Of a stretch of DNA of 41,003 bases, positions 437 to 39,238 are shown in pieces. The stretch is taken from positions 1 to 41,003 of the IMG/VR virus record IMGVR_UViG_3300045988_002471, one strand, 5' to 3'. The stretch's first letter is position 1. Every line of letters begins with the position of its first letter. The position numbers and the translations under genes are program-made. The notes under the pieces were generated by a model. That model worked only from the letters and a program-made list of their open reading frames with translations, was not told the DNA's origin and searched no databases. This DNA comes from a virus (lineage: Duplodnaviria > Heunggongvirae > Uroviricota > Caudoviricetes).

Positions 437-441
437 AGTGT

Positions 442-470
442 TGACACCCGAATAGTTAGCTATTATAGTT
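442..470 (+). promoter_or_regulatory. Sigma70-like promoter TTGACA-N17-TATAGT with embedded operator GAATAGTTAGCTATTA (451..466)
   Basis: -35 at 442..447, -10 at 465..470; near-identical to promoter/operator at 39210..39238. Confidence 0.6.
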
Positions 471-30461: not shown

Positions 30462-31003
30462 TCCTCTACCTCGCCCATGTTTGTGGTAACTATTTTGCCT
30501 ACGGGCTCCGCAACACTGAAAATAATCTCAGTCGGTGCCGTTTCTTCGGTGGATTCGACCGGTTTCTCTTTGCTAAGGCCTAGCTTCGCGGCAGCAAATG
30601 TAGCCGAGATGCCCGCGGCCCCGGTCTCGGTGAAGTATGCCTCTTCCAGTGCCTGTGCAGTTTCATAGGCTTCTGCAAATGCGGGAATCTCGCGCAGCCA
30701 CAGCTTAATAATCGGGATAGTGACGCCGATGTGCAGGGCGAAGCGGGCCAGTGATGGGGGTTTATCCTGAATCAGCGGGCGCTCTTCACCCTTGGACGTA
30801 GGCACAAGTTCCCATGACGTGCGGTCGAAGAACTCGATTAGCGCGTCGCAATAATCCGGGTCCCACAGCGCGGCGGAATTACGGGATGATTGATAAAGGC
30901 TCTGTTTACCGCGCGGTCGTTTACGTCGGCGGTTTGCGCTAACAGCTTCTTCATGTGCAGCTTGCACCACCTCTGGCGATGGCTGCTTGAGTTTCAGCTT
31001 CAT
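30458..31003 (-). CDS. Terminase small subunit (putative)
   Basis: Immediately upstream of and overlapping the large subunit; start set to ATG 31003 after RBS AAGGGGA. Confidence 0.5.
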   Translation of the reverse strand: MKLKLKQPSPEVVQAAHEEAVSANRRRKRPRGKQSLYQSSRNSAALWDPDYCDALIEFFDRTSWELVPTSKGEERPLIQDKPPSLARFALHIGVTIPIIKLWLREIPAFAEAYETAQALEEAYFTETGAAGISATFAAAKLGLSKEKPVESTEETAPTEIIFSVAEPVGKIVTTNMGEVEE

Positions 31004-31095
31004 ATAATCCCCTTGCATATGCGTCTGACCATCAGAGCGCACCAGACGCGCCCTACGCGTCTAAAGGGATTATATAAGGGGATTGGGCGGGATGT

Positions 31096-31121
31096 ACAGA
31101 AAAGCCCTCGGTAGAGGGCTT
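31096..31121 (-). terminator. Terminator-like hairpin (AAGCCCTC-ggta-GAGGGCTT) ending the small-ORF operon
   Basis: 8-bp stem plus T-rich tail on the minus strand. Confidence 0.45.
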
Positions 31122-31124
31122 GTA

Positions 31125-31226
31125 TCAGTTGTATAGGCCGTGGCGTGGTGCTCTTTTACCGTCGCCGCCGTAATGGTCGTTAGCTACGGGAATGGCCCAG
31201 GCGTTAGGGATGATTAGTAGTCTCAT
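31125..31226 (-). CDS. Tiny ORF (33 aa)
   Basis: Own translation; ATGA coupling to upstream ORF. Confidence 0.2.
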   Translation of the reverse strand: MRLLIIPNAWAIPVANDHYGGDGKRAPRHGLYN

Positions 31227-31381
31227 TTGAAGAAACCATCCTCGACAAGCTGACGGTATAGTTTAGCTGCGTAACGCTCTGCCTGGCCTTTGCGCCGAAA
31301 TATTTTCCCATTAACTGAATACTTATTTAACTCTGGCTCGTACCAAACTTGGTTGTCGATGAACTCCAGAATACTAATCAT
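31223..31381 (-). CDS. Small ORF (52 aa)
   Basis: Own translation MISILEFIDNQVWYEPELNKYSVNGKIF...; ATGA coupling. Confidence 0.3.
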   Translation of the reverse strand: MISILEFIDNQVWYEPELNKYSVNGKIFRRKGQAERYAAKLYRQLVEDGFFK

Positions 31382-31614
31382 TCCCCACTCTCCTCTTTAG
31401 CAATACGTTGCTCAGTTTTAGTGATACCCCGGCGCGTGAATAACACCGGGCTTGTCTTAACGTGCGTCATCAGACGGTTGTTATAAATTACATGGCGCTC
31501 GCAGTTAACGTCTTTGCTGTACTTGGCAATCGTCATTTCGTTGATGCCGGTTTGTCGGCATGTCTCAGCCATCGTGCCGTATTCTTTAATCAGGTTCGGA
31601 ATGCTGGTAATCAT
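31378..31614 (-). CDS. Small protein with possible HTH (78 aa)
   Basis: Track ORF trimmed to MITSIPNLIKEYGTMAETCRQTGINEMTIAKYSKD... (ATGA coupling). Confidence 0.4.
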   Translation of the reverse strand: MITSIPNLIKEYGTMAETCRQTGINEMTIAKYSKDVNCERHVIYNNRLMTHVKTSPVLFTRRGITKTEQRIAKEESGE

Positions 31615-31781
31615 CCTAAGAAATTCCTCGTTGTCCACATCGCATTCGGATATTTGTTATCGCGGTCCCGCACTACGGCAACCATGTTACCGCGTTGCAC
31701 CAGGCAAAAGTGCCGTTGTTGCTCGCCGTTGTAACGACGCCAGATTGCCTCTTCGATTGCTGCGTTAATGTCACTGAACAC
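31611..31781 (-). CDS. Small ORF (about 56 aa, GTG start)
   Basis: Track ORF has TTG start; GTG with RBS chosen instead. Confidence 0.3.
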   Translation of the reverse strand: MFSDINAAIEEAIWRRYNGEQQRHFCLVQRGNMVAVVRDRDNKYPNAMWTTRNFLG

Positions 31782-31866
31782 TGCCTCTACCCCACATAAA
31801 CCCAATCAACACGCCGATGAAATAACCGGCCGCCACAAGACCGATAACCACTTCAAGGCTCATACA

Positions 31867-32058
31867 TTACCCCACTATCTCATCACCGAGCCACGCCGTT
31901 TCTCGTATATCGTCGACCACACAAGCGGCGTGCTCACGGCTAATTGCAAAAATGTAGAAGCTGAACTTCTTCCCGTCGGCGTCGATGTGGTTAACCGAGT
32001 ATGGTTTCCACAGGACGCCATCGATAACTACGGGTTCAGGCGCTTTCATACCCATCAC
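31867..32058 (-). CDS. Small hypothetical protein (63 aa)
   Basis: Track ORF in the coupled small-ORF operon. Confidence 0.4.
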   Translation of the reverse strand: MMGMKAPEPVVIDGVLWKPYSVNHIDADGKKFSFYIFAISREHAACVVDDIRETAWLGDEIVG

Positions 32059-32233
32059 CCCGGGATTTGTTCAGGTTGAAGCGGTTAATCAGTTCACGGC
32101 GTGTCTCATAAAGCGACTCCACCATTTGCTCGGCTACCGCGATTTTAGTATTCAGGACGCGCATCACGTGGCTGATGTCTACGCCGCCGTTAACGGCCTC
32201 TACCATCATCTTTTCGTATTCACGGTCGGTCAT
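32036..32233 (-). CDS. Small hypothetical protein (65 aa)
   Basis: Start set to MTDREYEK (ATGA coupling, RBS GGGGAGAG). Confidence 0.4.
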   Translation of the reverse strand: MTDREYEKMMVEAVNGGVDISHVMRVLNTKIAVAEQMVESLYETRRELINRFNLNKSRGDGYESA

Positions 32234-32385
32234 TTTTTCTCTCCCCACATGCGATTGAGATACTTGTTCTTGTCCGGCCCCGGGAAACTGTTACGTTTCA
32301 TCAGTTCCTCGCGTGACGGGAACGGGACGTGACTGACTTTACGGCCTACTCGTAACGGCTGGCTTACTGGGCCTTGTTCGCTCAT
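32230..32385 (-). CDS. Small ORF (51 aa)
   Basis: Own translation MSEQGPVSQPLRVGRKVSHVPFPSREELMKRNSFPGPDKNKYLNRMWGEKK; RBS AGGAGA. Confidence 0.35.
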   Translation of the reverse strand: MSEQGPVSQPLRVGRKVSHVPFPSREELMKRNSFPGPDKNKYLNRMWGEKK

Positions 32386-32531
32386 TTCTTCTCTCCTGCA
32401 TAAGCTGCTTTAAGTGTCTGCATCGCGGCGAACCAGAACGCGTCCGCTGGAATGCTGTTGCTCAGGTTACTAATGGCGATGCGCGCCATCAGTTGTGCGT
32501 CTTTGAATGCTTCGGTATCTGTGATTTTCAT
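32382..32531 (-). CDS. Small ORF (49 aa)
   Basis: Own translation MKITDTEAFKDAQLMARIAISNLSNSIPADAFWFAAMQTLKAAYAGEKK; ATGA coupling both ends. Confidence 0.35.
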   Translation of the reverse strand: MKITDTEAFKDAQLMARIAISNLSNSIPADAFWFAAMQTLKAAYAGEKK

Positions 32532-32719
32532 TTATCATCTCCGTAAAAAGCTGCCACTTGCCCAACAATAATCATAAAATCATCCAGGCTCACATTAACA
32601 TTAGCTAATTCGTCACTATCTCCGTCGGTGCAAGTTATAAGTAATGAACCATCCCTGCACTTCTCTATCTCCAGGAAATCGCCCCAGTTATCGGTATGCT
32701 TAATCTTAGTAATTTTCAT
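32528..32719 (-). CDS. Small acidic hypothetical protein (63 aa), first gene of the operon
   Basis: Track ORF about 30 nt downstream of promoter 32753..32781. Confidence 0.45.
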   Translation of the reverse strand: MKITKIKHTDNWGDFLEIEKCRDGSLLITCTDGDSDELANVNVSLDDFMIIVGQVAAFYGDDK

Positions 32720-32752
32720 CTTCTCTACTCCGTTCTCGTTGTCGATGGAGTA

Positions 32753-32781
32753 AATATAATAGGGTCGATGGTAATAGTCAA
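32753..32781 (-). promoter_or_regulatory. Sigma70-like promoter TTGACT-N17-TATATT for the small-ORF operon
   Basis: -35 at 32781..32776, -10 at 32758..32753 on the minus strand. Confidence 0.55.
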
Positions 32782-32802
32782 CTAGTCATTACAGAAAATA
32801 GA

Positions 32803-32836
32803 TAAAAAAAATCCCGGCTGGGTCAGGGCCGGGATA
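32803..32836 (-). terminator. Rho-independent terminator after the endolysin gene
   Basis: ATCCCGGC...GCCGGGAT stem then T8 on the minus strand. Confidence 0.7.
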
Positions 32837-32899
32837 AAACTGGAGAGCAGAGGGATGGAGCAGGAGGTGATTTAAGTATCGTCGGATTAGTCTCAGGTG

Positions 32900-33403
32900 T
32901 CAACCTTTCACCGCGCGCCCAATAGCCTCAGCCTCTTGCCACGGTTTACCGTCGAACAGCGCCAGACGCCCGGCTGTACGGCGACGCAGGCCAAGTAGTG
33001 GTTTGCCGTTCTGGTTGATGAACAGCGCCAGCTTAGCCCGCAGTGTTGCAGTATCACCAGAACGCAGTGCCTTGCCTGTGCCCGTAGTAGACGCAATCAC
33101 GCCAGCACCTGCGTTATACACCAGGTCACACACCGCATCGAACTGTGCCTGTGTAAGCGAATGGTGTGCTGCTGCGTCAACCGCAGCTACAGCCTTAGCC
33201 ATATCGCGATTCAGTAACAGTAAGCCCTGTCCTGGTGTGATGGTCTTACCTGGTGTTACGTCCGGCCCGTAGTGACCATAACCAATAGTCAGGTACTTCT
33301 CGTTCGGCGTAGCGCGATATGCAGTACCGCGGAACCCCTCGAACGCGGCGGTAAAATGCAATCCATTATCTGAAATATTTCGAGACACGCTTATGTCCTC
33401 CAT
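32900..33403 (-). CDS. Endolysin, lysozyme-like (GH24-type)
   Basis: FTAAFEGFRGTAY...TIGYGH lysozyme signature; start set to MEDISV (ATG 33403). Confidence 0.7.
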   Translation of the reverse strand: MEDISVSRNISDNGLHFTAAFEGFRGTAYRATPNEKYLTIGYGHYGPDVTPGKTITPGQGLLLLNRDMAKAVAAVDAAAHHSLTQAQFDAVCDLVYNAGAGVIASTTGTGKALRSGDTATLRAKLALFINQNGKPLLGLRRRTAGRLALFDGKPWQEAEAIGRAVKG

Positions 33404-33638
33404 ACGACAGCCACGCCTGGCGAATCTGACGCAGTGCAACTAAAGTGATTAATGTCTCAGGCAGCGTAGGCGACATGCTGCCCTGTAACAGGTGAATACA
33501 TCCGGCGGCGCAGACAATAGCGGTCAGGATATAGAGCACCCGGCCAAATAATCCGTCGTCCACGCTGGGATGATATACATTAAACAGCGATGCGCCACCG
33601 ATTGCCAGCATACCGCCGAACCAGAATAGCTCATTCAT
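33366..33638 (-). CDS. Small two-TM membrane protein (holin/antiholin-like)
   Basis: Two hydrophobic segments; start set to MNELFWFGG; overlaps endolysin start. Confidence 0.4.
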   Translation of the reverse strand: MNELFWFGGMLAIGGASLFNVYHPSVDDGLFGRVLYILTAIVCAAGCIHLLQGSMSPTLPETLITLVALRQIRQAWLSYGGHKRVSKYFR

Positions 33639-33939
33639 CAGGGCCTCCTCGACGTGCAATGTATTCTCCGGCGACGATACCGGAGAGGCGGGAATAGAGG
33701 GGCATCCAGAGAATAGCAATGATGAACCCAAGGCCCGCTATTTCGCGTTCACCTGTGATACCGAACCATTGTGCTGCGAGAGGCGCACCAAATACGGCGC
33801 AGGTGAAGCCAGTTGCAATAAAGCAGAAGCCGTCAATAGGGCCAGAAATAACGGACTTATGTTGCCTTAGTCCGATTACCCCACCAGCTAGTGCGGCGGC
33901 GAGAAGCCACCCCGTCACTGTTTCAGTAAATTTATCCAA
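33631..33939 (-). CDS. Holin (three predicted TM segments), TTG start
   Basis: 102 aa, hydrophobic segments, charged C-terminus; RBS GGAGGA 6 nt before TTG. Confidence 0.55.
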   Translation of the reverse strand: MDKFTETVTGWLLAAALAGGVIGLRQHKSVISGPIDGFCFIATGFTCAVFGAPLAAQWFGITGEREIAGLGFIIAILWMPLYSRLSGIVAGEYIARRGGPDE

Positions 33940-39209: not shown

Positions 39210-39238
39210 TTGACACGTGAATAGTTCGCTATTATAGT
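39210..39238 (+). promoter_or_regulatory. Promoter TTGACA-N17-TATAGT with embedded operator GAATAGTTCGCTATTA (39219..39234)
   Basis: Consensus -35 and near-consensus -10; operator occupies the spacer. Confidence 0.65.

Follow-up and report, generated by a model that had tools for sequence, protein, structure and literature searches.

The closest known organisation to the locus described here is that of the nin regions of lambdoid phages (lambda ninB-ninI and P22 ninA-ninZ), in which mostly small, dispensable open reading frames (ORFs) are chained by four-nucleotide start/stop overlaps. These regions lie between the replication gene P and the antiterminator gene Q, within the pR delayed-early operon of temperate phages. 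Morons, described by Hendrix and colleagues, are extra genes, with a promoter and terminator of their own, inserted among the genes of a late operon in a phage genome; in their classical form they occur singly in temperate phages and are expressed from the prophage for lysogenic conversion. Phage accessory regions, described for enterobacteriophages, combine conserved flanks with short, fast-turnover genes of unknown function (Silas et al., bioRxiv 10.1101/2023.04.06.535777). Here we analysed an array of ten small minus-strand ORFs, designated o1 to o10, at positions 31125..32719 of a 41,003-nucleotide stretch of Caudoviricetes DNA (IMG/VR record IMGVR_UViG_3300045988_002471), hereafter the window. 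The array is most probably a self-contained accessory-gene operon of a virulent K1G-like Kagunavirus siphophage, with the lysis cassette on one side of the insertion and the packaging genes on the other.

The array resembles the nin regions in its chain of small overlapping ORFs, with four-nucleotide overlaps at 6/9 junctions in the window, 5/8 in lambda ninB-Q and 3/4 in P22 ninG-23. Two gene families are common to both (NinH with o8, NinZ with o4), and in both the content is mosaic between phages. Unlike a nin region, the array belongs to a virulent siphophage of the Guernseyvirinae, lies between the endolysin and small terminase (terS) genes and has its own promoter and terminators. It is also without the larger nin enzymes: NinB/Orf, NinC, NinG/Rap and NinI had no Pfam match among the ten ORFs, and NinB/Orf, NinG/Rap and NinI had no PHROG or NCBIfam match among them either. 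A further difference is that o3 (DUF2737) is related to a gene of the pL operon and not to a nin gene. With phage accessory regions the array shares conserved flanks and short, fast-turnover genes of unknown function, but it goes beyond that definition in having a conserved core (o2-o5, o7 and o8) and conserved promoter and terminator borders. It is moron-like in being a promoter- and terminator-bounded insert between two late gene blocks (the sites being predicted), and unlike a classical moron in being a ten-gene operon in a virulent phage. The kind of feature is already known and is present, poorly annotated, in hundreds of public genomes; the window contributes a unique combination of cassettes. 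Modest novelty lies in the o5 family, in the NinH variant with its reversed charge, in the rarely annotated membrane micropeptide and in the junction tails that cassettes share.

Megablast searches with region 31000..32900 of the window matched 443 phage records. The closest relatives were the E. coli siphophages fTaEco03, K1G, K1H and L AB-2017 (94-98% identity), which belong to the genus Kagunavirus, subfamily Guernseyvirinae; the window is accordingly taken to be the nearly complete genome of a K1G-like phage. Endolysin and terS genes flank the array on the same strand, and annotated relatives have the lysis cassette (two holins and the endolysin) on one side and the small terminase subunit on the other. 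A DNA-level search of 5,426 complete E. coli genomes returned no match to the array and thus no indication that it resides in a prophage. For comparison, 49 IMG/VR loci were collected with the small terminase as bait, together with GenBank loci, and the analysed set comprised the 37 loci that contained both flanking genes, the window itself counted. In GenBank the region is annotated with between 2 and 11 'hypothetical proteins' and occasional NinH, NinZ-like or DUF2737 labels.

The ten back-to-back ORFs, of 30-78 amino acids, fill 31125..32719 and were reproduced independently by a tiling script:

o1, start 32719, stop 32528, minus strand, 63 amino acids
o2, start 32531, stop 32382, minus strand, 49 amino acids
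o3, start 32385, stop 32230, minus strand, 51 amino acids
o4, start 32233, stop 32036, minus strand, 65 amino acids
o5, start 32049, stop 31867, minus strand, 60 amino acids
o6, start 31863, stop 31771, minus strand, 30 amino acids
o7, GTG start 31781, stop 31611, minus strand, 56 amino acids
o8, start 31614, stop 31378, minus strand, 78 amino acids
o9, start 31381, stop 31223, minus strand, 52 amino acids
o10, start 31226, stop 31125, minus strand, 33 amino acids, last gene of the array

Eight of the nine junctions between these ORFs overlap, six of them as ATGA. A reading of the window made from its letters and a list of its ORFs (the sequence-only reading) had placed six ATGA overlaps here, and all were found at exactly those sites (32531/32528, 32385/32382, 32233/32230, 31614/31611, 31381/31378 and 31226/31223). 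In region 31100..32800, a scan found six ATGA sites at which two ORFs of 28 codons or more meet; 500 dinucleotide shuffles gave 0.23 such sites on average and never more than 3. The remaining junctions are a 14-nucleotide overlap (o4/o5), a 3-nucleotide gap (o5/o6) and an 11-nucleotide overlap with a GTG start (o6/o7). Across the 37 loci 284/329 junctions overlap, 181 of them by four nucleotides (NTGA) and 29 by one. The earlier description of an array of tiny chained ORFs was therefore borne out; its count of about nine has to be raised to ten, and the hydrophobic peptide it gave as 29 amino acids long has 30 (31863..31774 plus the stop codon).

Selection on the ORFs was measured over the 37 loci as the pairwise Nei-Gojobori ratio of nonsynonymous to synonymous substitution rates (dN/dS). 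Values of 0.07-0.26 were obtained for o1-o8 and o10 (o1 0.22, o2 0.16, o3 0.23, o4 0.26, o5 0.07, o6 0.13, o7 0.21, o8 0.15, o10 0.11), and variable sites were concentrated at third codon positions. Two flanking intergenic pseudo-ORFs gave 1.04 and 0.71. Six of the same alignments, shifted by one or two bases, gave 0.8-3.1 with dozens of stop codons against none in frame; the off-frame values were 0.8-0.9 for o1, 0.94 and 2.8 for o6, and 1.3-1.4 for o10. There was too little variation in o9 for dN/dS to be estimated, and this ORF has a PHROG family match (phrog_22059). Judged by these substitution patterns, nine of the ten small ORFs (all but o9) are demonstrably protein-coding genes under purifying selection. 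The sequence-only reading had named unconserved frames in related phages as the finding that would count against it; the frames proved to be conserved and under purifying selection, so the genes are to be regarded as real. The compact operon of tiny ORFs that it described is upheld in the same way, with translational coupling of the ORFs suggested by their overlaps, and its hydrophobic micro-ORF, o6, is a real gene by its in-frame dN/dS that annotators usually miss.

These results bear directly on the view that the region is a non-coding spacer or a regulatory RNA in which reading frames, especially those of 30 and 33 amino acids, arose by chance. The ORFs are tiny and fall under the usual gene-calling cut-offs, o6 is unannotated in most records, the K1H RefSeq record annotates 2 of about 11 array ORFs, and o1 and o6 have no PHROG family. 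Against this, o6 and o10 have their low dN/dS in frame with no stops, compared with 0.9-2.8 and 19-52 stops off frame; variable sites fall preferentially at the third codon position, start-stop coupling is kept in every context, and no Rfam family was matched (the entire window gave no hits in searches for Rfam families and tRNAs). Chance frames appear to be largely refuted already by the dN/dS results, and we regard this explanation as very improbable indeed. Two plus-strand antisense ORFs, 31768..32079 (103 amino acids) and 31985..32332 (115 amino acids), were rejected as genes because they are interrupted or truncated in most relatives. These antisense ORFs over o4-o7 exceed the real genes in length and could mislead gene callers.

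The borders of the array carry the following signals:

32803..32835, minus strand, left terminator after the endolysin gene: 8-bp GC-rich stem, 9-nucleotide loop and U8 run; -13.8 kcal/mol
32753..32781, minus strand, predicted sigma-70-type promoter: TTGACT, 17-nucleotide spacer, TATATT; 10/12 consensus matches
32720..32752, minus strand, leader with Shine-Dalgarno sequence GGAG, ending at the first start codon; its ...ACGGAGTAGAGAAGATG is kept in 37 loci
31095..31121, minus strand, right terminator: stem AAGCCCTC/GAGGGCTT followed by UUUCUGU; hairpin 31102..31121, -14.3 kcal/mol, z = -3.8

The promoter (32753..32781) and the terminator had both been proposed in the sequence-only reading and were recovered by a consensus scan and by folding. 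In 37/37 loci the left border has the same order, namely the terminator hairpin, the U-run, TAGTTGACTA, a variable spacer, TATATT and the leader with its conserved end, and it is the same whichever of about eleven ORF families stands first. The -35 and -10 hexamers are invariant in the 37 loci around a spacer that varies, which is the pattern expected of a working promoter. Both terminators are kept in all loci and show compensatory changes in the Jerseyvirus-like ones, from CCCGGC/GCCGGG to CCCGGTA/TACCGGG on the left and from CCCTC/GAGGG to CCCGC/GCGGG on the right. From these signals the array looks like an autonomous transcription unit insulated from the lysis and packaging operons. A hairpin at the 5' end of the leader that might occlude the Shine-Dalgarno sequence was no better than shuffles (z = -0.5).

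The two best sigma-70-like promoters of the window, at 441..469 and 39210..39238 on the plus strand, have the form TTGACA-17-TATAGT (11/12 matches) and head plus-strand gene blocks. They are likely to be early promoters of the same class as that of the array. Since the array promoter is near consensus and of the class of those at 441 and 39210, we infer that unmodified host RNA polymerase would transcribe one polycistronic mRNA of about 1.65 kb, with no phage factors needed, and that expression would be early. Ribosomes would then move from ORF to ORF by termination-reinitiation at the overlaps, and by this means the ORFs with weak Shine-Dalgarno sequences (o5, o8 and o10) would also be translated.

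The content of the array between these fixed borders is highly plastic. Among the 37 loci there are 36 architectures, which draw on 48 ORF families (median length 60 amino acids). Near-universal genes are o2, o3, o4, o5, o7 and o8, together with family F1, which is found in 28 loci and is absent from the window. The order o1-o10 of the window is unique in the set and includes the rare cassettes o1 (5 loci), o9 (6) and o6 (12). The absence of F1 from the window is a clean deletion: o4 keeps the last residues of F1 and its 14-nucleotide overlap onto o5, the breakpoints can be placed relative to fTaEco03, and the C-terminal tail of o4 is chimeric.

Cassettes found in one and the same slot, though unrelated, frequently have identical 3' ends of 15-22 nucleotides. 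The 3' tail GCAGGAGAGAAGAAATGA is common to o2, F21 and F47, and AAAGAGGAGAGTGGGGAATGA to o8 and F9; the o4 gene of the window and F1 share 22 nucleotides, and o2 and some o3 alleles share 16, which gives a direct repeat bracketing o3. As a baseline, about 97% of 1128 family pairs share at most 8 nucleotides. Cassette F15, the first array ORF in loci L031, L036 and L052, is an in-frame fusion of the N-terminal part of F25 with the complete o2, indicating that recombination inside the array can create fused micro-proteins. Among ten other cassettes from relatives that were searched against Pfam and PHROG, one recognised domain was found, DUF3850/ASCH in F4, which is absent from the window.

On the basis of these alignments we hypothesise that the shared junction tails are sites of cassette exchange. 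As the array evolves, whole ORFs would be gained, lost or swapped when recombination occurs at the short Shine-Dalgarno plus ATGA junctions, and exchange at such junctions would leave frame and coupling intact. A stronger form of this idea, which we put forward tentatively and think rather doubtful as a whole, is that the array is a recombinase-free cassette platform. Its junction linkers of 15-22 nucleotides would both couple translation and provide portable homology for in-frame swaps, so that whole micro-genes could be inserted, deleted and swapped between co-infecting phages behind a fixed promoter, leader and ATG. The cargo would include functionally new micro-proteins, among them the 30-amino-acid membrane peptide, the 60-amino-acid family with invariant W, A and H residues, and the NinH variant with a charge-reversed recognition residue.

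The proteins of the proposed accessory-gene operon were compared with the family databases. Eight of the ten ORFs matched PHROG families, all labelled 'unknown function', and none of the ten had an NCBIfam match. The sequence-only reading had suggested that such arrays often hold proteins with no known homologs; this does not apply here, with 8/10 ORFs in PHROG families, o3 belonging to DUF2737, o8 being NinH-like and o4 NinZ-like. The first protein, o1, is very acidic (isoelectric point 4.2, net charge about -7) and had no Pfam or PHROG match. It is present in 5/37 loci and 20 phage records, all of Kagunavirus, and its closest relative is 91.5% identical. The o2 gene (phrog_2180, E = 2e-26) is a core gene of the array, present in 34/37 loci and 625 phage records, and is distributed throughout the Guernseyvirinae and in a few other siphophages. 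The basic protein o3 matched DUF2737 (PF10930) at 35.7 bits against a 25-bit cut-off (E = 8e-9), and proteins of lambdoid temperate phages of the Stx and HK types share 66-74% identity with its core; in HK544 the gene for the relative follows erf and abc2 immediately, within the pL early-left operon. The C-terminal half of o4 (phrog_1402) resembles P22 NinZ, with 46% identity over 26 amino acids.

A single-pass membrane micropeptide is predicted for o6, with Kyte-Doolittle hydropathy above 2 over 19-residue windows. It is an optional cassette found in 12/37 loci and 63 phage records, has no PHROG family and is similar to the C-terminal anchor of F8, a cassette found in the same slot; among 25 records listed it was plausibly annotated in only one (JSSK01). 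The o7 protein (phrog_5407), which starts with GTG, is encoded in 32/37 loci, and its AlphaFold2 model was unusable (predicted local distance difference test score, pLDDT, 60). Homologues about 47% identical are found in the N4-like Gamaleyavirus, 2 kb from the left genome end, where a run of small ORFs directly follows the RNAP1 subunit A gene, as in Escherichia phage Mimir124 (L060, 1924..2100). By analogy with phage N4, this left-end small-ORF region is presumably an early region. In Salmonella phage KE08 (L061, 2001..2339) the o7 domain forms the N-terminus of a 112-amino-acid protein in a small-ORF array upstream of the large terminase gene. Towards the end of the array, o9 (phrog_22059) is present in 6/37 loci and 24 phage records, of which the 18 sharing at least 95% identity are mostly phages of K1-capsule or uropathogenic E. 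coli, and o10 (phrog_32259) is present in 23/37 loci.

The acidic protein o5 is the product of the most constrained gene of the array. Its AlphaFold2 model (pLDDT 84) is that of a small alpha/beta protein with the topology beta-beta-beta-alpha-beta. An exhaustive HMMER search of 1.84 billion proteins gave 63 representative clusters of the o5 family, in which W14, A35 and H40 are invariant. The window protein had no Pfam match (E <= 1), a Foldseek search of the model against viral models gave significant E-values only for the o5 family itself, and searches of PDB sequences with o5 and o8, by single sequence and by profile, found nothing significant.

In GenBank record PQ141284 the homologue of o5 is labelled an RNA polymerase inhibitor and described as 'similar to 2LMC_A', which refers to T7 Gp2 (PF16857; PDB 2LMC and 2WNM). 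Membership of o5 in the Gp2 family is not supported, as both the profile match and the C-terminal motif are absent from the o5 family. None of 42 o5-family members matched PF16857 (E <= 0.01), compared with 4e-28 for T7 Gp2, and the RVRP motif, formed by R56, V57, R58 and P59 and invariant in 18 Gp2 sequences, has no counterpart; the o5-family C-terminus instead reads TAxLxGxxxG and has no conserved arginine pair. A profile-profile comparison of the o5 family with a Gp2 family alignment gave 27% probability over 30 columns. In terms of fold, many unrelated ones scored equally well or better. The 'RNA polymerase inhibitor' label is not supported for o5, and a distant fold relationship to Gp2 is possible.

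The o8 protein matched the NinH family (PF06322) with E = 2.5e-5 and 24.6 bits, where the cut-off is 29.8 bits, and phrog_268 with E = 2e-30. It is 33% identical over 51 amino acids to the NinH proteins of lambda and P22, which have a Fis-like helix-turn-helix. The lambda protein is a Fis-like dimer able to bind and bend DNA, and its R30A substitution raises the dissociation constant more than 1000-fold (PMC7166090). The equivalents of lambda T32, K35, H45, H55 and R56 are conserved in 31/31 distinct o8 sequences, the equivalent of R30 is glutamate in 31/31, and that of N18 is mostly threonine. Going by these residues o8 is NinH-like, and its DNA recognition, if any, must differ from that of lambda NinH. 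In the phrog_268 model (119 positions) the first 41 positions match o4 and positions 44-117 match o8; it seems to derive from sequences in which these two genes, distinct in the window, are fused or merged.

Several observations weigh against the accessory-operon interpretation or parts of it. Most of the related loci are close relatives, which limits the divergence behind the selection estimates. The shared tails could be due in part to common selection for a Shine-Dalgarno sequence plus ATGA, and a duplicated tail is carried by only some inserted cassettes (F21, F47, F9 and F12). As for o8, it falls below the Pfam cut-off for NinH and has glutamate at the key DNA-contact residue of the lambda protein, Arg30. 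Finally, the NinH gene of the related phage K1B4 is transcribed during infection, and the K1B4 time course, which has coarse time points and few small ORFs annotated, places it in the 'middle' class with lysozyme and structural genes (PMC12645636). The K1B4 RNA sequencing paper and its supplements gave no per-gene timing for small ORFs (PMC12645636), and a literature search for Jerseyvirus transcriptomes found nothing relevant.

The 'middle' class of the K1B4 NinH gene would also agree with late functions for the array, that is, with proteins that assist lysis (as an antiholin, a membrane disruptor or a stand-in for a spanin) or packaging and are expressed together with the neighbouring lysis and terminase genes. 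The position between endolysin and terS on the same strand points the same way, as do the frequent small membrane proteins of the array (o6, F3, F8 and F9) and the lack of an annotated spanin after the endolysin in relatives. However, the covarying terminators insulate the array from both neighbours and it has its own, predicted, consensus-like promoter. Its membrane cassettes are optional, o6 being present in 12/37 loci, and inspection by eye, with no tool run, found no lipobox or spanin-like architecture in them. In addition, the relatives of o3, o4, o7 and o8 lie in lambdoid early operons or at the N4-like left end. Late functions for the array therefore seem improbable to us.

As an accessory operon, the array would deliver products that act as dispensable modulators of the infected cell. 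Among them would be a DNA-binding protein of the NinH/Fis type whose recognition residue is altered, NinZ-like and DUF2737 proteins acquired from the early operons of lambdoid phages, the acidic proteins o1 and o5, probably binders or inhibitors, and the predicted membrane micropeptide. A role in host takeover or anti-defence, which had been suggested for such arrays in the sequence-only reading, is plausible by analogy, and is indirectly favoured by the relatives in lambdoid early operons and at the N4-like left end, the hypervariable content and the array's own promoter.

A narrower proposal is that the array is a dedicated anti-defence island, whose small proteins mainly inhibit bacterial immune systems and whose turnover reflects an arms race. 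The conserved flanks and hypervariable content fit the definition of accessory regions (Silas et al., bioRxiv 10.1101/2023.04.06.535777), small acidic proteins such as o1 and o5 are the sort that act as inhibitors, and the DUF2737 relative in HK544 adjoins the anti-RecBCD gene abc2. On the other side, the core genes o2-o5, o7 and o8 are conserved and do not turn over. Kagunavirus phages are reported to be highly sensitive to restriction-modification (RM) systems, and Bas70, 71, 72 and 76, which carry homologues of o1, o3, o6 and o7, are highly RM-sensitive and variably Old-sensitive (PMC11990801). The RM sensitivity of these BASEL Kagunavirus isolates makes a specific anti-restriction role unlikely, and a dedicated anti-defence island is, in our judgement, an unlikely description of the array, though a less unlikely one than late functions.

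Arrays of this kind hold much of the unexplored gene content of therapeutic-type coliphages, and Kagunaviruses are used in work on urinary-tract and K1 E. coli phages. The array may serve as a compact set of candidate host modulators that could be screened for toxicity and anti-defence activity. Its fixed borders and its tolerance of almost any small ORF would make it a natural payload site for engineering, and the junction-sharing pattern offers a testable model of micro-gene swapping that does not break translational coupling. Annotation of the array is very uneven between GenBank records, one relative bearing the unsupported 'RNA polymerase inhibitor' label.

Some further observations concern the neighbouring genes. 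The lysis cassette of the window (32900..33939, minus strand) and those of relatives L001, L056 and L063 consist of two holins and the endolysin and end at the terminator. A spanin gene was annotated in none of the relatives inspected, and the small membrane proteins o6, F3, F8 and F9 are candidates for such a role. In L AB-2017 (L002, 45..634) the endolysin, which is intact in the window, is annotated as two overlapping coding sequences (lysozyme and putative endolysin); this suggests a frameshift or a sequencing error in that record. On the other side of the array, the terS leader (31000..31066, minus strand) contains a pair of neighbouring hairpins (-24.4 kcal/mol, z = -2.5) in which the motif AGACGC recurs. 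A weak promoter-like site (TGTACA-18-TATAAT, 31098..31069) precedes them and the terS start follows; the hairpins are kept in 37/37 loci and could be a late-regulation or packaging signal.

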